IMG/VR virus record: IMGVR_UViG_3300008261_000017 | Span: 1-61,335 of that record | Source of the DNA: a virus | Lineage: Duplodnaviria > Caudoviricetes | Strand: one strand, 5' to 3' | Length of the DNA stretch: 61,335 nt | In this document: in pieces, positions 36,277 to 50,079 of the stretch | How positions within the stretch are numbered: position 1 is the first letter of the stretch | Layout of the letters: every line of letters begins with the position of its first letter | Notes under the pieces: generated by a model | Databases searched by the model: none | Seen by the model: the letters and a program-made list of their open reading frames with translations, nothing else | Told to the model about the DNA's origin: nothing | Translations under genes and position numbers: made by a program

Positions 36277-36426
36277 ATGGATCAGCACACCTATGACAAT
36301 TGGGTGAAGATCAAGGAGACCTTCGAACAGTCTGGCAATACAGACAATATGTTTTACAAAAGAGCTTGTGTAATTGTAAAAACCCGAAGAGACCCACTCG
36401 CAAAGTTTCTCGGAGATGAAAAATGA
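36277..36426 (+). CDS. small hypothetical, 49 aa (not in ORF track)
   Basis: MDQHTYDNWVKIKETFEQSGNTDNMFYKRA...; overlaps next ATG. Confidence 0.75.
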   Translation: MDQHTYDNWVKIKETFEQSGNTDNMFYKRACVIVKTRRDPLAKFLGDEK

Positions 36427-36626
36427 TGCACGAACAAGAAGAATTTATTACTAGAACTGAAGTCCAGGAGATGATTGATGCTGCTATACGACAGCACAAT
36501 AGAAATGCTTCCATTATTAGTATGTGTGTTGGTTGGGTGGTTCTTGCTTTATTTGCTGAAGGACTTCTAAGACTAATTGGAGTAATTCCACCTGTATTCC
36601 CATGGTTGAACATTACTCTCCAATAA
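36423..36626 (+). CDS. small membrane protein
   Basis: QEMIDAAIRQHNRNASIIS plus TM helix. Confidence 0.75.
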   Translation: MMHEQEEFITRTEVQEMIDAAIRQHNRNASIISMCVGWVVLALFAEGLLRLIGVIPPVFPWLNITLQ

Positions 36627-36895
36627 TATTTTTAGTTCCCTGGTTTGTTCTAGTTGCGATTGCATTATCAATGATTGTGCAGGGGTGGATGATTATGAAT
36701 GCTCATCATGGGTATTCAAAAAGTCCAAAGGTTAAGCATCCAGAAATGAACGACGTAAAAGCAGGAGACCCACTACTAGTGATTAAGTTTACAGACGAAG
36801 ACTTAGAACAATTACAAAGAAAAGTTCTTCAACAAAAAATGGAGGAACTTTTTGAAGAACCATCTACCTATGAGGATGAAGAAAATGACGAGTGA
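36602..36895 (+). CDS. DUF2973-like membrane protein
   Basis: TM helix then KHPEM...GDPLLVIKF. Confidence 0.7.
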   Translation: MVEHYSPIIFLVPWFVLVAIALSMIVQGWMIMNAHHGYSKSPKVKHPEMNDVKAGDPLLVIKFTDEDLEQLQRKVLQQKMEELFEEPSTYEDEENDE

Positions 36896-37010
36896 AGATT
36901 GGATTATTTTTATTTCATTTGTCTCGCATTTACTTTATATGTTTGTAGCATTTATGTGTGGAATGATTATTGGGTATATTGTTGGATTTAGAAACGGAAA
37001 CGGAGAATAA
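36885..37010 (+). CDS. single-TM microprotein, 41 aa (not in ORF track)
   Basis: MTSEDWIIF...AFMCGMIIGYIVGFRNGNGE. Confidence 0.6.
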   Translation: MTSEDWIIFISFVSHLLYMFVAFMCGMIIGYIVGFRNGNGE

Positions 37011-37014
37011 TTTT

Positions 37015-37104
37015 ATGGGAAACTTAATTTTTTCAACGGGTTGTATTTTTTCAATAATTGTAATTTTTATTTATTGGGGTCTCAACAACGCATATCCACA
37101 ATGA
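37015..37104 (+). CDS. NdhQ-like microprotein, 29 aa (not in ORF track)
   Basis: MGNLIFSTGCIFSIIVIFIYWGLNNAYPQ resembles NdhQ TM/C-terminus (..LIWWALHTAY); ATGA overlap. Confidence 0.55.
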   Translation: MGNLIFSTGCIFSIIVIFIYWGLNNAYPQ

Positions 37105-37292
37105 AACACGCACTCATTCTTAGTTTATGTTTTTTGCCTTTAGCAATTATCTACATAATAATGAAACTATCTTTATGGTTATCGACTAGTGTATCTGAAG
37201 TAAAATATGTCAGAGAAGATGCTAAACAACCACATGGACCCTACCTGGAAAATGCATATGCAGACATTGATGAAAATGAAGAGACAGATTGA
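37101..37292 (+). CDS. single-TM small protein
   Basis: MKHALILSLCFLPLAIIYI...HGPY. Confidence 0.65.
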   Translation: MKHALILSLCFLPLAIIYIIMKLSLWLSTSVSEVKYVREDAKQPHGPYLENAYADIDENEETD

Positions 37293-37425
37293 AACTAAAG
37301 AGATTATTGAAACTGCAATAGAAGAGTGGTATTTCGAAAACGGAAAAGAAATTCCCAATTGGAAAATAAACAAGGACCCTCAGTGGTGGATTGATTATTT
37401 AAAAGAATTGGAAAAAGATAGATAA
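37276..37425 (+). CDS. small Trp-rich hypothetical
   Basis: IPNWK..KDPQWWIDYL. Confidence 0.6.
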   Translation: MKRQIETKEIIETAIEEWYFENGKEIPNWKINKDPQWWIDYLKELEKDR

Positions 37426-37429
37426 AACT

Positions 37430-37636
37430 ATGAAACCAGAACATAGATGTTGGAACTTTGTTATGTCTTCTTTTGCTAGAATTTATGGTGTTAATAAGGC
37501 AAAAAGTGACGAAAGAATTCATGCATTTTCATTAGAATGGTGTGATGAAAACAATTATAGTTGCAATATTCATTTAGATGATTTGAGAAAAGTTGATGCT
37601 TATTTCAAACAACAATACGAAAATTGGGAGAGTTAA
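37430..37636 (+). CDS. small hypothetical
   Basis: ORF track; abuts gnd. Confidence 0.65.
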   Translation: MKPEHRCWNFVMSSFARIYGVNKAKSDERIHAFSLEWCDENNYSCNIHLDDLRKVDAYFKQQYENWES

Positions 37637-38671
37637 ATGAAAGTAGGATTGATTGGACTGGGACGCATGGGAGAAGGAATGTCCCGTCGTATGATGAAAG
37701 CAGGTATAGAAGTTTGGGGGTATCGAAGGAGTTATGAAAAAGCAAATGAAGCATATGAAAAGGGATATGTGGATGGAATTACAACTACTATTGAAAATCT
37801 TGTTAAAGTAGTTAAACAAAATAAAAATGGCAAATATCAACCAGGCATATTTCAGATGGTTGTCCCTGCCGAAACTGTAGAGGAGACAATCAATGAGTTA
37901 TTACGATATTGTAGTGAAGGAGATATTATTATTGATCATGGCAATAGCAATTTTAAGGACAGTAGGAAAAGAGCAGAACGTCTGGCAAAAATTGGTATCC
38001 AATATATTGATTGTGGCACTAGCGGTGGTGTTTACGGTTTGGATCGTGGATACTGTCTTATGGTTGGTGGCGGAAATACTGCGGTCTCCACTTGTGCGAG
38101 GATTTTTGATGCCCTCTCTCCAGGAATCAACGCTGCCCCAAGGACTCAATTTGACTCGGACATAACCTCTGCAGAACATGGGTGGTTGCATTGTGGTGGT
38201 CCTGGTGCGGGGCATTTTGTAAAGATGGTGCATAATGGTATCGAGTATGGTATTATGCAGGCATACGCAGAAGGATTTAATATTATTAAAAATGCAAACG
38301 CAGGTGCAAAGTATGTTAAGGAAGGAGATGCCGAGGTTGCTCCAATGGCAGATCCAGAAAGTTATTGCTATGATATTGACGTTGCTGAGGTGGCTGAGTT
38401 ATGGCGTAGGGGTAGTGTTGTTGGGTCTTGGTTACTTGACCTTACCGCTGATGTTTTACGGAATGATGGTCAACTTAAACAGTTCTCTGGAGGGGTATCC
38501 GACAGTGGTGAGGGTCGTTGGACTGTTTCTGCCGCTGTGGACCTTGGTGTACCTGCCCCTGTCATTACCACTGCGCTTTTTGAAAGATTTAATTCACGCA
38601 ATCTGGGCACTTTCGCAGCCAAGATTTTGAATGGTATGAGATACATGTTTGGTGGTCATCATGTTAGGTAA
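37637..38671 (+). CDS. gnd: 6-phosphogluconate dehydrogenase (decarboxylating, short type)
   Basis: GLGRMG, DCGTSGG, GHFVKMVHNGIEYG, SGEGRWT, FGGH. Confidence 0.97.
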   Translation: MKVGLIGLGRMGEGMSRRMMKAGIEVWGYRRSYEKANEAYEKGYVDGITTTIENLVKVVKQNKNGKYQPGIFQMVVPAETVEETINELLRYCSEGDIIIDHGNSNFKDSRKRAERLAKIGIQYIDCGTSGGVYGLDRGYCLMVGGGNTAVSTCARIFDALSPGINAAPRTQFDSDITSAEHGWLHCGGPGAGHFVKMVHNGIEYGIMQAYAEGFNIIKNANAGAKYVKEGDAEVAPMADPESYCYDIDVAEVAELWRRGSVVGSWLLDLTADVLRNDGQLKQFSGGVSDSGEGRWTVSAAVDLGVPAPVITTALFERFNSRNLGTFAAKILNGMRYMFGGHHVR

Positions 38672-38780
38672 GGCACTTTTATTTGTTGCTATTCCTTTTG
38701 TATTATCTACTCTTTATTTTGGGACAAAGGGGGGTTATTATGATTCTGACGATTATAAAGGAAATGGAACAGCACACTAA
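38661..38780 (+). CDS. ndhP: NDH-1 subunit NdhP homolog, 39 aa (not in ORF track)
   Basis: MLGKALLFVAIPFVLSTLYFGTKGGYYDSDDYKGNGTAH matches NdhP signature FGT..G.YD.D.Y.GNG.AH. Confidence 0.85.
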   Translation: MLGKALLFVAIPFVLSTLYFGTKGGYYDSDDYKGNGTAH

Positions 38781-38922
38781 TATTGTATTTAAACTTGTGG
38801 AGATTTTAGCATCAAGTCCAATATGGTTAGGAATTTGTGGAGCAGGCTTGACAATCGCACCCATTATGGGCATAATGATAATACACAGGCAACCGAATTC
38901 TGATGGAAAAAATCACGATTGA
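38764..38922 (+). CDS. single-TM microprotein
   Basis: ...GAGLTIAPIMGIMIIH; ATG 38764. Confidence 0.6.
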   Translation: MEQHTNIVFKLVEILASSPIWLGICGAGLTIAPIMGIMIIHRQPNSDGKNHD

Positions 38923-39073
38923 AAATTTTCAAAAGGATTTTGATAATCTTATGAATAGAGTTGAAAATGGTGAATCTTTTCTAGTCGAAGATGAAACAGG
39001 AAAGTCTGTTGTTGTTACGCCATGTGATGAAGAAGTAATTCGTATACATACAGAACATAATGATGCAAGTTAG
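38903..39073 (+). CDS. Phd/YefM antitoxin-like small protein, 56 aa (not in ORF track)
   Basis: ITIENFQKDFDNLMNRVENGESFLV....SVVVTP. Confidence 0.55.
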   Translation: MEKITIENFQKDFDNLMNRVENGESFLVEDETGKSVVVTPCDEEVIRIHTEHNDAS

Positions 39074-39784: not shown

Positions 39785-40840
39785 ATGGGTCAATACATTA
39801 AGAAAGCACTTGTTTTGGGTGCTGGTGGGTTCATTGGAAGTCACATGGTTAAAAGATTACGTTCTGAGGGATATTGGGTTCGTGGTGTAGACCTCAAGTA
39901 TCCTGAGTATTCTCCAACTGAAGCAAACGAATTTATTCAAGGAGATCTTCGTGATGTAGATTTTGTTCGTCGTGTACTTGAATATAAGGGAGATAGAGGA
40001 AACTTTTATCAGTCAGTTCCTTATCGTTATATTCAGACCTTTGATGAAATTTATCAGTTTGCTGCTGATATGGGTGGTGCAGGATTCGTTTTCACTGGAG
40101 AAAACGATGCGGATATTATGCACAACTCGGCAACAATTAATCTGAACGTTCTTGAAGAACAGCATAAATTAAATGAAAGATTCGGTAAAAACAGTACTAA
40201 AATTTTCTATTCTGGTTCTGCTTGCATGTATCCTGAGCATAACCAACTTGATCCCGATAACCCTGATTGTCGGGAGTCTTCTGCTTATCCTGCCAATCCA
40301 GATTCTGAATACGGTTGGGAAAAACTTTTTAGTGAGCGTTTATATTTTGCTTACCATCGTAATTATGGTATTCCTGTACGTGTTGCTAGATATCATAACA
40401 TTTTTGGACCAGAGGGAACCTGGGAAGGGGGAAGAGAAAAAGCTCCTGCTGCGATTTGTAGAAAGGTGGCATATCTTCCGACTGAGGGAGGTTCTATCGA
40501 AGTATGGGGAGACGGAAAACAAACTAGATCTTTCCTCTATATTGATGAATGTATCGAAGCAACAAGAAGATTGATGGACAGTGACTTTATTGGACCTGTA
40601 AATATTGGTTCCGAAGAGATGGTCACTATTAATCAACTTGTGGAAACTGCTGCAAAGGTTGCAGATAAAGATGTGCAAAAAATGCACAAGTTGGATGCAC
40701 CTCTTGGTGTTCGTGGTCGTAACTCAAATAATGATTTGATTCGGGAAAAACTTGGTTGGGATTATTCTCAAACTCTTGAAGAAGGTATTCGCAAAACATA
40801 TAATTGGATTTCTGAACAAATTGCCAAAAAAGAATCATGA
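39785..40840 (+). CDS. NAD-dependent epimerase, GDP-mannose 3,5-epimerase-like
   Basis: GAGGFIG, AADMGG.GF, YGWEK, GGREKAPAA.CRK. Confidence 0.88.
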   Translation: MGQYIKKALVLGAGGFIGSHMVKRLRSEGYWVRGVDLKYPEYSPTEANEFIQGDLRDVDFVRRVLEYKGDRGNFYQSVPYRYIQTFDEIYQFAADMGGAGFVFTGENDADIMHNSATINLNVLEEQHKLNERFGKNSTKIFYSGSACMYPEHNQLDPDNPDCRESSAYPANPDSEYGWEKLFSERLYFAYHRNYGIPVRVARYHNIFGPEGTWEGGREKAPAAICRKVAYLPTEGGSIEVWGDGKQTRSFLYIDECIEATRRLMDSDFIGPVNIGSEEMVTINQLVETAAKVADKDVQKMHKLDAPLGVRGRNSNNDLIREKLGWDYSQTLEEGIRKTYNWISEQIAKKES

Positions 40841-41526
40841 GTTGGAGAAGTTCATTATTAGATATTGCGATTAATGACTATAATAGTTTTGATCGAAATG
40901 AACTGGTAGAATATGATATTTACCAGTTTGGGGTTTTTAATGGAGGTTCAATGAAAGAAATTGCCTCAATTTTAAATAAACATAAAATTGAGGTAAATTC
41001 TTTTTATGGATTTGATGTTTTTACTGGAATGCCAAAAGAAACAGCAGAACCAATTTTTCAGGACTCTTGGAATCCAGATATTTTCCCAGACGAATTTAAT
41101 GTATTAAAATACATGAATCTCACCACACCTGAAGAGTGTGCATCACATATACAGACAGAAGTAAAAAATATTTTTGTTTCTAGAGAAAATAATACAAAGG
41201 TATCAGTTGTTCCTGGTTTAGTTGAGGAAACTCTACCTTCTCAAAAAGATTTAAAACCAGCATTTTATGTTGATTTTGACCTTGACATTTATTCTCCAAC
41301 AAAATATGCGTTTAATTATTTGATGGAGAATAACTTGATTGTTCCTGGTACTTTGATTGGATATGATGACTGGGGTGGAACTCCTGGATTTGAAGAATTC
41401 AAAGACGGAGAATCAAGAGCACATAAAGAAATCATAGATCAGTGGGGAATTGCTATGACTAAATTGTATCAAAGTGGAAACACATACCCACATGTACAAA
41501 CTATTTGGATTGTTGAAGAGGTTTAA
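40837..41526 (+). CDS. TylF/MycF-like O-methyltransferase
   Basis: QFGVFNGGS, GFDVF.G.P, DFDLDIYSPT, YDDW. Confidence 0.75.
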   Translation: MSWRSSLLDIAINDYNSFDRNELVEYDIYQFGVFNGGSMKEIASILNKHKIEVNSFYGFDVFTGMPKETAEPIFQDSWNPDIFPDEFNVLKYMNLTTPEECASHIQTEVKNIFVSRENNTKVSVVPGLVEETLPSQKDLKPAFYVDFDLDIYSPTKYAFNYLMENNLIVPGTLIGYDDWGGTPGFEEFKDGESRAHKEIIDQWGIAMTKLYQSGNTYPHVQTIWIVEEV

Positions 41527-42192
41527 ATGAAAACATTAGTTTATATTGGTGCCAATCAAGGGCATAGTTTGGGTATGCTTGTTAATACTTTTGAAAAAGT
41601 TTATGCATTTGAACCAGACCCAGAAATGTTTTCTACTTTGAAAAGTAGATTTGGCACATTAAGTCATGTCACATTGGTAAATGCTGCATGTTCTCTTGAG
41701 GATGGTGAAGCAAATTTTTATGTTACTGGAAATAGAGTAGCAAGTAGTCTCGGTGATGGTTCAAAAGAGTTTAAGGATTATCACGGATATAATGCATCAG
41801 TGATTAAAGAGATTGCAGTTAAGACAATTAATCTTTATGATTATCTTGAAAGTGAAGGTGTGGAATTTATTAGTCTTTACTATTCTGATTGTCAAGGCAG
41901 TGATTTAAATGTCCTAAAAACTATGAAAAAGTTTGTGGATGAAAAAAGAATTGGTGAACTCTTTATGGAGACTCATGCTGACGGAACTTTTTTATATGAA
42001 GGGTTAGATAATCAATTTAGTGGATTCAAAGAAATTCTTTCAGAGAACTATGAGTTTATTCATGCAAGTTTAGGTGCATTTAATGGTAGAATTGTTGATG
42101 AAGACAATTTGGTTCCTGGAGATCCAGAATGGGATAGTTACTGGAGATTAAAAGGTTATACTGAAACAAACGGATTAAATTTGAGGGCATAA
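41527..42192 (+). CDS. FkbM-family methyltransferase
   Basis: IGANQG, AFEPDP, DCQGSD. Confidence 0.8.
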   Translation: MKTLVYIGANQGHSLGMLVNTFEKVYAFEPDPEMFSTLKSRFGTLSHVTLVNAACSLEDGEANFYVTGNRVASSLGDGSKEFKDYHGYNASVIKEIAVKTINLYDYLESEGVEFISLYYSDCQGSDLNVLKTMKKFVDEKRIGELFMETHADGTFLYEGLDNQFSGFKEILSENYEFIHASLGAFNGRIVDEDNLVPGDPEWDSYWRLKGYTETNGLNLRA

Positions 42193-47917: not shown

Positions 47918-49387
47918 ATGAAACTCAAACAACTGATGCTTGCACCTGTTGCTCTGGGTATGGTTGCTCCTGTTGCTGCGAATGCCGCAGACCTTAATAT
48001 GGCAGCAGTCAACCAATACAATACTTCTGAGCAGGTTACAAGTATTACTCAACTTTCTGATGTGCAACCCACTGATTGGGCATATCAGGCACTAAGCAAC
48101 CTCGTAGAACGTTATGGTTGCGTTGCTGGTTACCCCAATGGCACTTATGGTGGTGGTAAGGCAATGTCCCGTTATGAGGCAGCAGCACTTCTGAATGCTT
48201 GCCTTGATCGTGTGACTGAAGTTACTGATGAATTGAAGCGTCTTGCTGATGAATTCCGCAACGAACTGACTACTATTCAAGGTAGTGTTGCTAAACTCGA
48301 AGCTCAAGTTGGAGAATTGGAGGCAACTCAGTTCTCCACCACTACCAAACTGCGTGGTGAAGCAAACTTTGTTCTTGGTGGTGTTGATGATTATCAGACT
48401 AAGACTGGTGACATTACTCATACTGCATTCAATTACGATTTGCGTCTGAACCTGGATACTTCATTCACTGGCAAAGATCTGCTGAAAACTCGTCTGCGTT
48501 CTGCTAACTTCAGCAGCAATCCTTTCGGTTCTAGTTCGTCTATCTTCAAACTGGATAAGGCAGACAACACCACCAGTGAAGTTGGTAACAACGTAGTTAT
48601 CGACCGTCTGTATTATTCATTCCCTGCGTTCAACAACAAAGCAACCCTGACTGCTGGTGCTCTGGTTCGTAACACTGAGATGGCATGGATTCCTACTGCA
48701 TATAAGTCTGGCATCCTTGACTTCTTTGCTGTTGCAGGTACTCCTGGTGTGTACAACAAAGCAACTGGTTCTGGTTTTGGTGCTCAGTATGGCAAGAAGG
48801 GTCTTGTTGCTGGTGTAAACTATGTTGCACAAAATGGTCAAGACAGTTCTACTGGTGAGTTTGACAAGACTGGTGCTCTGAATACTCTGGCACAAATCGG
48901 TTATCGTGGCACTAACTGGGGTGCTGCTTTCGGTTATCGTTATGGCACCGAAGGCACTCGTGTTCGTACTTATAACGGTCTGAATGGTGCTTCTGGCACT
49001 CTGGTTCCTGGTCAAACCTCCAATGGTTATGCCCTGAACGCATACTGGCAACCCGAGAAAGCAGGTATTGTTCCTTCTATCTCTGCTGGTTATGGTTGGA
49101 ACACTGTAAGTGGTACTGTTAGTGATGCTACCGATAGTCAGTCTTGGTTTGCTGGTCTAACTTGGGATGACGTGTTTGTTGATGGCAACTCTGCTGGTGT
49201 TGCTATCGGTCAAGCACCTACTGGTGAGAACCTTGAGAAGTCCACGATGCTTGAAATCTTCTACAAGTATCAAGTATCTGACAACATTAGTGTCACTCCT
49301 GCTATCATCTACGGTAGTGACAACCAACGTCTTGCTAACAACTCCTCCAACTGGGGTGGTGTAATCCAAACTACCTTCAAGTTCTGA
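47918..49387 (+). CDS. cyanobacterial-type outer membrane porin with SLH domain (SomA/OprB-like)
   Basis: Signal peptide, SDVQPTDWAYQAL..LVERYGC, FSTTTKL.GE, terminal TTFKF. Confidence 0.93.
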   Translation: MKLKQLMLAPVALGMVAPVAANAADLNMAAVNQYNTSEQVTSITQLSDVQPTDWAYQALSNLVERYGCVAGYPNGTYGGGKAMSRYEAAALLNACLDRVTEVTDELKRLADEFRNELTTIQGSVAKLEAQVGELEATQFSTTTKLRGEANFVLGGVDDYQTKTGDITHTAFNYDLRLNLDTSFTGKDLLKTRLRSANFSSNPFGSSSSIFKLDKADNTTSEVGNNVVIDRLYYSFPAFNNKATLTAGALVRNTEMAWIPTAYKSGILDFFAVAGTPGVYNKATGSGFGAQYGKKGLVAGVNYVAQNGQDSSTGEFDKTGALNTLAQIGYRGTNWGAAFGYRYGTEGTRVRTYNGLNGASGTLVPGQTSNGYALNAYWQPEKAGIVPSISAGYGWNTVSGTVSDATDSQSWFAGLTWDDVFVDGNSAGVAIGQAPTGENLEKSTMLEIFYKYQVSDNISVTPAIIYGSDNQRLANNSSNWGGVIQTTFKF

Positions 49388-49699: not shown

Positions 49700-49786
49700 A
49701 TGACTTCACTTATCTTTACAATGACATCCGTTGCCTTTTTTGTTTTACTGGCAGCATCTGTTGAAAAACTTTGCGAGACTTACTAA
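49700..49786 (+). CDS. single-TM microprotein, 28 aa (not in ORF track)
   Basis: [28 protein letters not shown]; TAATG overlap with petF. Confidence 0.55.
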
Positions 49787-50079
49787 TGACCGTTTTTAAT
49801 GTCACTCTTCAATCTCCTGATGGCACCGAAACTACAATTCAATGTCAAGATGACCAATACATTCTTGAAGCAGCAGAAGAAGCAGGTATCGACCTTCCTT
49901 CTTCATGTAAAGCAGGTGCTTGCTCGGCTTGTGCTGGAAAACTCATCTCTGGCACCGTAGATAATGAGGAGCAATCATTCCTTGATGATGAGCAGCAGGC
50001 AGAAGGTTGGGTGCTGACTTGTGTAGCATATCCCACTAGTGACTGTGTTATTCTTACTGAGCAGGAAGAGAACCTGTGA
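49786..50079 (+). CDS. petF: plant-type [2Fe-2S] ferredoxin
   Basis: [10 protein letters not shown]...LTCVAYP. Confidence 0.96.

Follow-up and report, generated by a model that had tools for sequence, protein, structure and literature searches.

We have examined a 61,335-nucleotide stretch of viral DNA (IMG/VR record IMGVR_UViG_3300008261_000017; this whole stretch is referred to here as the window), a 61-kb fragment of a Synechococcus-type cyanomyovirus whose record is rated as 30% complete, and which contains a small open reading frame (ORF) at positions 37015..37104 of the plus strand, the stop codon being counted in. Its predicted product, which we call vNdhQ, is a single-helix microprotein of 29 residues that shares its helix and its WGLxNAYP end with picocyanobacterial NdhQ, a small subunit specific to NDH-1L, the form of NDH-1 that serves cyclic electron flow and respiration. 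The closest cultured relatives of the window, over parts of its length, are phages DSL-LC02 and DSL-LC03, and DNA near-identical to it is present in metagenomes of freshwater, lake and estuary origin that come from 10 studies.

The vNdhQ ORF begins with an ATG codon (37015-37017) and ends with a TGA (37102-37104), and translation from this ATG gives exactly the 29-residue peptide that a first-pass annotation, made from the DNA letters, had singled out as a hidden NdhQ-like microprotein. A Shine-Dalgarno-like GGAG (37002..37005, plus strand) is located 9 nt 5′ of the ATG, and the TGA overlaps the ATG of the next ORF within an ATGA (37101-37104). The peptide is also contained within a longer TTG-started frame (36970..37104); the in-frame stretch upstream of the ATG is unconserved and corresponds to an other-frame reading of the preceding gene, and this extension does not belong to the vNdhQ gene. 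Residues 4-23 form an unbroken hydrophobic run, giving the one transmembrane helix that characterizes NdhQ.

Relatives of vNdhQ are widely distributed. A pattern scan of IMG/VR returned at least 599 stretches, and relatives were confirmed by tblastn in at least 364 contigs, from which 80 loci were kept for reading. Together with the window these make 81 loci encoding 50 distinct peptides, mostly of 28-32 residues. The small frame recurs in all 80 IMG/VR loci; its Met, 20 residues ahead of the Trp, is invariant, and the stop codon follows 0-4 codons past AYP. One of the 50 distinct peptides is without its stop and reads on to 63 residues. Most family members have GGAGG-like sites at an equal distance upstream. 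In an alignment of 43 phage sequences, which also provides the phage profile used below, residues M1, F12, W21, G22, L23, A26 and Y27 are invariant, and the mean ratio of nonsynonymous to synonymous polymorphism (pN/pS) is 0.41 across 43 distinct 29-codon DNA versions. Searching 50,697 phage records by tblastn gave weak matches in 54 records (E ≤10), in cyanophages only, and each matched place that was viewed showed the same small frame. As judged by its conservation, the vNdhQ frame is a coding gene of a cyanomyovirus family, and more than a chance ORF. The gene is unannotated in all seven isolate records viewed (DSL-LC03, Sf-CH3, S-MbCM7, S-CAM9, ACG-2014f, S-CAM4 and S-RIM12), and the 29-residue peptide matched no family in Pfam, NCBIfam or PHROGs at E ≤10. 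The family alignment, with the 44-residue TTG-started frame as its first row, was also compared with 5.8 billion protein clusters, which gave one candidate and none that was scored.

Comparison of alignments places vNdhQ with NdhQ. When the 43-sequence phage profile was compared by hhalign with an alignment of 16 picocyanobacterial host NdhQ sequences, the two matched with a probability of 97.3% (E 1.9e-11, score 50, 40% identity across 25 columns), and the window peptide alone matches the host alignment with E 2.2e-8; as a control, the same phage profile compared with the NdhP family, also a single-helix microprotein, gave a probability of 0.7% and E 0.08. Aligned by BLASTP with the NdhQ of a freshwater Synechococcus, the window peptide is 40% identical over 25 residues, with E 4e-6 for this one pairwise comparison. 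The relationship also holds at the level of whole genomes, the cyanobacterial host genomes having been reached via petF. In six-frame searches of five picocyanobacterial genomes, the best match of the phage profile is the NdhQ ORF in four (E 4.8e-6 to 5.7e-5), a small ORF ending in GGIG-x-FI-x-WGL-x-NAYP, and the host alignment finds these same ORFs at the same coordinates with E 1e-19 to 1e-26; the fifth genome (1.7 Mb) has no NdhQ match with either the phage or the host profile. In the reverse search, with the host alignment against phage records, the vNdhQ ORF is the best match in five of five (E 4e-8 to 6e-6; positions 37057-37101 in the window).

The identity of the host ORFs is indicated by both their names and their relatives of solved structure. 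Exact look-up of the host ORF cluster finds the depositor name 'NADH dehydrogenase subunit NdhQ' in Synechococcus BIOS-E4-1 and BIOS-U3-1, and homology searching adds WH 8101 under the same depositor name. Among the 177,635 sequences of the PDB, the top three matches to the host alignment are the NDH-1L NdhQ chains 6khi_Q, 6l7o_Q and 6hum_Q (E 9.2e-5, 1e-3 and 0.047), in an alignment of 35 columns that includes the N-terminal segment. Residues W21, L23, A26 and Y27 of vNdhQ fall in the same columns that are invariant in the 16 host NdhQ sequences and are present in the solved chains and in 17 other cyanobacterial NdhQ sequences, and the C-terminal W-x-L-x-x-A-Y of vNdhQ follows right after the helix, as it does in NdhQ. 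The first-pass annotation had offered a search with an NdhQ profile as one check on its NdhQ-like reading; that search gives a significant match by way of host NdhQ, whose family leads in turn to the NDH-1L chains. The end of Thermosynechococcus NdhQ that it had given is that of 6l7o_Q, to which the phage profile aligns without gaps over residues 22-44, up to the C-terminus of the chain. Taking these comparisons together, ORF 37015..37104 very probably encodes an NdhQ homolog.

The form of the C-terminal motif bears on where the gene came from. WGLx[NH]AYP is present in all 16 picocyanobacterial NdhQ sequences, and the phage versions end likewise. A sample of 61 genomes of the cyanobacterial phylum gave an NdhQ match in 18, of which 17 lie outside genome G001; many of the sampled genomes without a match are small, and we take them to belong to non-photosynthetic lineages. 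The other 17 NdhQ sequences start M-S-D-L-N-R-G-I-M-K-F-x-G-A-D-S-P and mostly end W-A-L-Q-x-A-Y-A, with WGL in only one and NAYP in none. Marine phage versions (S-CAM4 and S-RIM12) retain a host-like LGG/LGS stretch in the helix. By its motifs vNdhQ is of the picocyanobacterial type (Synechococcus/Cyanobium/Prochlorococcus clade), as would be consistent with its having been captured from the cyanobacteria that these phages infect.

The genes around vNdhQ are arranged as the first-pass annotation had described, with ndhP 1.6 kb downstream, gnd between the two, and petF elsewhere in the window. The gnd gene (37637..38671, plus strand) encodes a 6-phosphogluconate dehydrogenase (PF03446 E 2.3e-34; PF00393 E 1.3e-21), and its 3′ end is overlapped by ndhP (38661..38780, plus strand; 6khi_P E 5.3e-9, 6hum_P E 6e-8, phrog_2173 E 1.6e-21), which encodes 39 residues from its ATG, or 43 from a TTG at 38649, and has the conserved MLGK... 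start of the NdhP family. The ferredoxin gene petF (49771..50079, plus strand; PF00111 E 6.5e-25) is 58-66% identical to cyanobacterial petF and is included only for context; NDH-1L receives its electrons from ferredoxin. With a hidden Markov model (HMM) of NdhP, ndhP is found in 21 of the 80 vNdhQ loci, always downstream, on the same strand and 0.37-2.8 kb away, and thus within 3 kb, and when the count is limited to the 56 loci with 2.5 kb or more of downstream sequence, 20 have it. The order in ACG-2014f is ndhP, one gene, vNdhQ, and in the isolates it is gnd, petE or PTOX that adjoins vNdhQ. As a host-type gene that resides in a cyanomyovirus and has gnd, ndhP and petF among its neighbors, vNdhQ has the attributes of a cyanophage auxiliary metabolic gene. 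It is real, conserved and widespread, homologous to NdhQ and of picocyanobacterial type, and often linked to ndhP and gnd.

These neighbors offer some observations of their own. The gnd gene of the phage is of a non-cyanobacterial type, its best 80 matches in contigs sampled at one genome per species being from diverse non-cyanobacterial bacteria at 48-53% identity. A tblastn search detects homologs of the phage ndhP in 375 phage records, in 366 of which the match spans 80% or more of the query, and most of them are labeled 'hypothetical protein'; a 2025 paper calls ndhP uncommon in cyanophage genomes (PMC12801897), and it seems that phage ndhP is common but under-annotated. Two short contigs (L168 and L169), assigned to 'Acidibacter' and 'Bacteroidota' metagenome-assembled genomes (MAGs), encode petF genes 86-88% identical to that of the window, and these are probably cyanophage contigs that have been mis-binned into bacterial MAGs.

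What role might such a protein play? According to reports on cyanobacterial NDH-1L, NdhP and NdhQ sandwich NdhD1 from its two opposite faces at the distal membrane arm, and are in contact with NdhF1, with lipids and with a beta-carotene (PMC6992706, PMC7021789). Deletion of either ndhP or ndhQ leads to conversion of about half of NDH-1L to NDH-1M, and deletion of both to conversion of nearly all of it (PMC11794437), and the two subunits are described there as the 'molecular glue' of the NdhB-NdhD1 joint, keeping the NdhD1/NdhF1 module on NDH-1M (PMC6992706, PMC7021789, PMC11794437). We propose that vNdhQ is an auxiliary metabolic microprotein derived from a picocyanobacterial NdhQ gene, in which the helix and the WGLxNAYP end were kept and the N-terminal arm was lost. 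It would be made during infection, insert into the thylakoid at the NdhQ site of host NdhD1, and help to hold NDH-1L assembled, its effect being presumably stabilizing rather than disturbing. With NDH-1L kept in this way, ferredoxin-driven cyclic electron flow and ATP supply could be sustained as host protein synthesis falls, and vNdhQ would act beside the phage ndhP, petF and gnd products. Taken as a whole, this reading of vNdhQ as a viral NdhQ with a stabilizing role at the NdhQ site is one that we hold with moderate confidence.

A binding model gives this proposal weak support, and there are several considerations that count against it. The contact with NdhD1 was modeled using residues 24-553 of a freshwater Synechococcus NdhD1 (a 553-codon frame beside ndhF1; 6hum_D E 8.7e-245) and a natural 30-residue member of the vNdhQ family, with an alignment given for each. 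The docking score is 0.56 (0.56, 0.57 and 0.52 in the separate runs) as against 0.00 for the best of three controls, although these controls are unrelated 30-residue proteins and not other hydrophobic helices; the pLDDT of the partner is at least 78 and contact agreement between runs is at least 97%. Among 80 solved complexes 58 pass the docking mark, as do 2 of 110 mismatches; those that pass with a score of 0.60 or below are only 7 of the 80 complexes, but both of the mismatches. The modeling with host NdhD1 is graded as weak support for a putative binding of vNdhQ to that subunit, and because a like complex (NDH-1L) has already been solved, the pass may reflect likeness and not binding.

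With regard to expression, contigs from RNA libraries (four metatranscriptome libraries in two studies) include relatives that are 85-95% alike over parts of 36400-38800, including 37057-37337, and provide no cover in the bins 36922-37008 and 37444-37617; such contigs may derive from DNA and do not amount to proof of vNdhQ transcription. With regard to partners, protein and profile searches found no ndhP in any of the four vNdhQ phage genomes that are rated as 96-100% complete, and vNdhQ and ndhP are therefore not an obligatory pair. The idea of a module with ndhP, raised in the first-pass annotation, is borne out only in part: it describes the 21 of 80 loci in which ndhP lies no more than 3 kb downstream, and does not extend to these four genomes. 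There is no ndhD or ndhF within the window, and since the record is only 30% complete, the phage may still carry either one.

The similarity itself is not apparent in every type of search. In phmmer searches of the PDB the single window peptide finds no NdhQ at E ≤10, and only chance helices (E 3 and 5.4), and a single host NdhQ does not find the PDB NdhQ chains; likewise, tblastn of a single host NdhQ against the 50,697 phage records gives no match. As single sequences find nothing, the link between vNdhQ and NdhQ rests on profiles. The phage profile compared directly with the PDB places NdhQ first and third among all 177,635 sequences, but with E 0.19 and 0.61 (the best NdhQ value with an earlier five-sequence phage profile was E 0.4), values that are suggestive without reaching significance, and a helix of an unrelated transporter, 8ybq_A, scores close by at E 0.44. 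Similarity to structure-proven NdhQ is thus E 0.19 when measured directly, and when measured in two steps is E 1.9e-11 from phage to host NdhQ and E 9.2e-5 from host NdhQ to 6khi_Q.

These direct values, all above 0.1 and about equaled by the transporter helix, raise the question as to whether vNdhQ is simply a generic phage membrane microprotein, acting perhaps in membrane targeting or lysis timing, with a likeness to NdhQ that is compositional or convergent. The peptide is certainly very short and hydrophobic, and it is flanked by small membrane ORFs without assigned function. However, a compositional likeness does not sit well with reciprocal best matches obtained genome-wide and in six frames, in four of five hosts and five of five phage records, nor with a control comparison to another helix family, that of NdhP, reaching only E 0.08; moreover, the shared features are not confined to the helix, since the polar NAYP is common to phage and host and is C-terminal in both. 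We disfavor a generic or convergent microprotein on these comparisons, and consider it the most improbable of the explanations discussed here.

A second host family also needs to be considered. Marine Synechococcus encode a further membrane protein of 43-51 residues, annotated as 'putative membrane protein' and ending in WGLANAYP (L234:1441-1569, plus strand, in host genome G002; proteins P0016-P0020), and vNdhQ could be a mimic of this family, with a partner perhaps outside of NDH-1L. The phage profile does match its alignment by hhalign (probability 94.3%, E 9.6e-8, 20 columns, score 33) and matches the family in one genome with E 0.0015, and the WGLxNAYP ending is common to both. The match to NdhQ is nonetheless stronger and longer (E 1.9e-11, 25 versus 20 columns, score 50 versus 33), and in the genome that has both proteins NdhQ scores 27.7 bits and the second protein 20.4; the second protein is present in only one of five host genomes. 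The family is, in addition, itself NdhQ-like, its alignment of only four close sequences matching that of host NdhQ with E 5.2e-8, and we regard mimicry of it as improbable. A search of the PDB with a single member of this family gave no match, and from its similarity to NdhQ it may be an uncharacterized NdhQ paralog.

A further difficulty is that posed by the N-terminal arm, whose absence from the phage protein the first-pass annotation had correctly pointed out. The arm segment G-(S/A)-(E/D)-S-(T/P) is present in all 16 picocyanobacterial NdhQ sequences, in the 17 other cyanobacterial NdhQ sequences and in the solved chains, and none of the 50 distinct phage peptides has this conserved segment. 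vNdhQ is in this respect unlike NdhQ, and with the arm missing a role as a plain substitute is not assured. The length of the arm steps down from about 20 residues in other cyanobacteria to about 10 in marine picocyanobacteria and to none in the phages, and in two freshwater picocyanobacterial NdhQ sequences the arm is longer and of low complexity.

The uniform loss of a segment that is conserved in all host and solved NdhQ proteins, together with the occurrence of vNdhQ without ndhP in the four near-complete genomes, would be expected if vNdhQ were a truncated modulator, occupying the NdhQ site without gluing, competing with host NdhQ, and loosening or remodeling NDH-1L. The NdhD1/NdhF1 module might for example be shifted off NDH-1M, or the balance between NDH-1L and the CO2-uptake forms be changed, and the homology and docking results fit such a modulator and a stabilizing subunit equally. 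On the other hand, the cyanophage genes of this region (petF, petE, PTOX, ndhP and gnd) are generally read as sustaining electron flow and the supply of ATP and NADPH, and the picocyanobacterial arm is already shorter than that of other cyanobacteria, which have MSDLNRGIMKF ahead of it, so that arm length is evidently tolerant of change; the literature consulted offered nothing on what the arm does. We consider a disruptive modulator to be unlikely. Rather doubtful, too, is the suggestion that the arm-less vNdhQ re-tunes NDH-1, holding the NdhQ face of NdhD1 with an altered NdhB-NdhD1 joint and so giving a phage-modified NDH-1L; were this to be the case, cyclic flow, proton pumping or the output of reactive oxygen species could be changed, with or without phage NdhP, and a 29-residue viral peptide would constitute a natural probe of small-subunit control in complex I-type enzymes. 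A viral NdhQ that stabilizes NDH-1L at the NdhQ site is the interpretation that we continue to prefer.

The immediate surroundings of vNdhQ are rich in other small ORFs. Upstream, a transmembrane ORF of 42 residues from its ATG (36882..37010, plus strand) stops 4 nt short of the vNdhQ start and is similarly placed in many related loci, its out-of-frame reading recurring upstream of vNdhQ; no library family scores above threshold for it, and a search for it in five host genomes gave one weak match within a 337-residue frame (E 0.036), which was taken as chance. Downstream, a 63-residue membrane ORF (37101..37292, plus strand), whose ATG overlaps the vNdhQ stop codon, belongs to a phage family (phrog_2832 E 4.8e-22). 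It is followed by a 68-residue ORF (37430..37636, plus strand) with the motif (A/I)MSSF(A/V)R(I/M)YG, whose relatives often adjoin vNdhQ in other phages; the MSSF-type motif is present in 13 of the 80 loci, and the ORF has no Pfam family. Relatives of 66-92 residues, with the motif (A/F)(M/L)S(S/A)F(A/S/V)R(I/M)(Y/F)G, flank vNdhQ on either side in many cyanophages (L001 2574-2774, L237 2765-2980 and L242 1298-1501). A third conserved microprotein, a small membrane protein encoded after ndhP (at about 38780..38922 of the window, plus strand) and with a helix of the form ...GL/CG...VP/API.GMW/IMI.H..., follows vNdhQ in S-CAM4, S-CAM9, S-RIM12 and S-MbCM7 (L001 2759-2896, L004 2544-2714 and L242 1578-1736), and is labeled gp123 in two records.

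Further from vNdhQ, the window encodes a 56-residue protein with a Phd/YefM-like antitoxin domain (38903..39073, plus strand; E 3.9e-4, which is under the Pfam cut-off); in DSL-LC03 and Sf-CH3 its relatives bear the names 'prevent host death protein' and 'Phd-like antitoxin'. At 39785..42192 (plus strand) there is a sugar-nucleotide epimerase/dehydratase followed by TylF-type and FkbM-type methyltransferases, a glycan-modification block situated beside photosynthesis-related genes, and at 47918..49387 (plus strand) a 489-residue ORF with SLH and OprB-type porin domains, a phage-borne copy of a cyanobacterial outer-membrane porin.

Cyanophage ndhI, ndhD and ndhP are on record in earlier reports (PMC10452541, PMC12801897, PMC3877843). 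A phage ndhQ is not reported in the literature searched, which had subscription journals and supplements outside its scope, and where NdhQ stood beside phage only in the title of a reference; this agrees with the first-pass annotation, to which no described phage NdhQ was known. On the sequence evidence, vNdhQ is best read as a host-derived NDH-1 small subunit that cyanophages carry in shortened form. It is widespread, in at least 364 IMG/VR contigs as well as in isolates, and escapes both gene callers and family libraries; microproteins of fewer than 30 residues are readily missed when viral auxiliary metabolic genes are listed. Together with ndhP, it means that some cyanophages, that of the window included, appear to encode both of the small subunits by which NDH-1L is defined and stabilized. 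Cyanophages with vNdhQ may prop up host cyclic electron flow in infection, and that phages protect or alter NDH-1L during infection is a claim that is testable in cultured phage-host pairs.

Set beside its closest known counterparts, vNdhQ shows both likenesses and differences. With Thermosynechococcus NdhQ (6khi_Q, 6l7o_Q and 6hum_Q) it shares W-x-L-x-x-A-Y, and phage positions 5-27 align gap-free with residues 22-44; the direct score is 14.9 bits (E 0.19), the Thermosynechococcus protein has about 20 extra N-terminal residues, and it ends in WWALHTAY where the phage protein has WGLNNAYP. The second marine Synechococcus family (QNI53784.1, WP_255482993.1) ends in W-G-L-A-N-A-Y-P as vNdhQ does (hhalign E 9.6e-8), but differs in its helix and in its basic N-terminal segment (MARKIQLP...), and its match is weaker than that of NdhQ. 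Phage NdhP (phrog_2173) corresponds to vNdhQ in being an NDH-1L-specific single-helix subunit encoded in the same variable region of cyanomyoviruses; the two have no sequence relation (hhalign E 0.08), and phage NdhP is full length relative to host NdhP, whereas vNdhQ is shortened. It is with picocyanobacterial NdhQ (QNI53491.1 and QNI57728.1, named NdhQ by their depositors) that the correspondence is closest in form, both having one transmembrane helix and, after it, F-I-x-W-G-L-x-N-A-Y-P close to the C-terminus. The host proteins are at least 39 residues long, with some 10 or more N-terminal residues that include a G-S-E-S-T-like segment, whereas vNdhQ starts 4-5 residues before the helix, and where the host helix has Gly and Leu, that of vNdhQ has more Phe, Ser and Ile.

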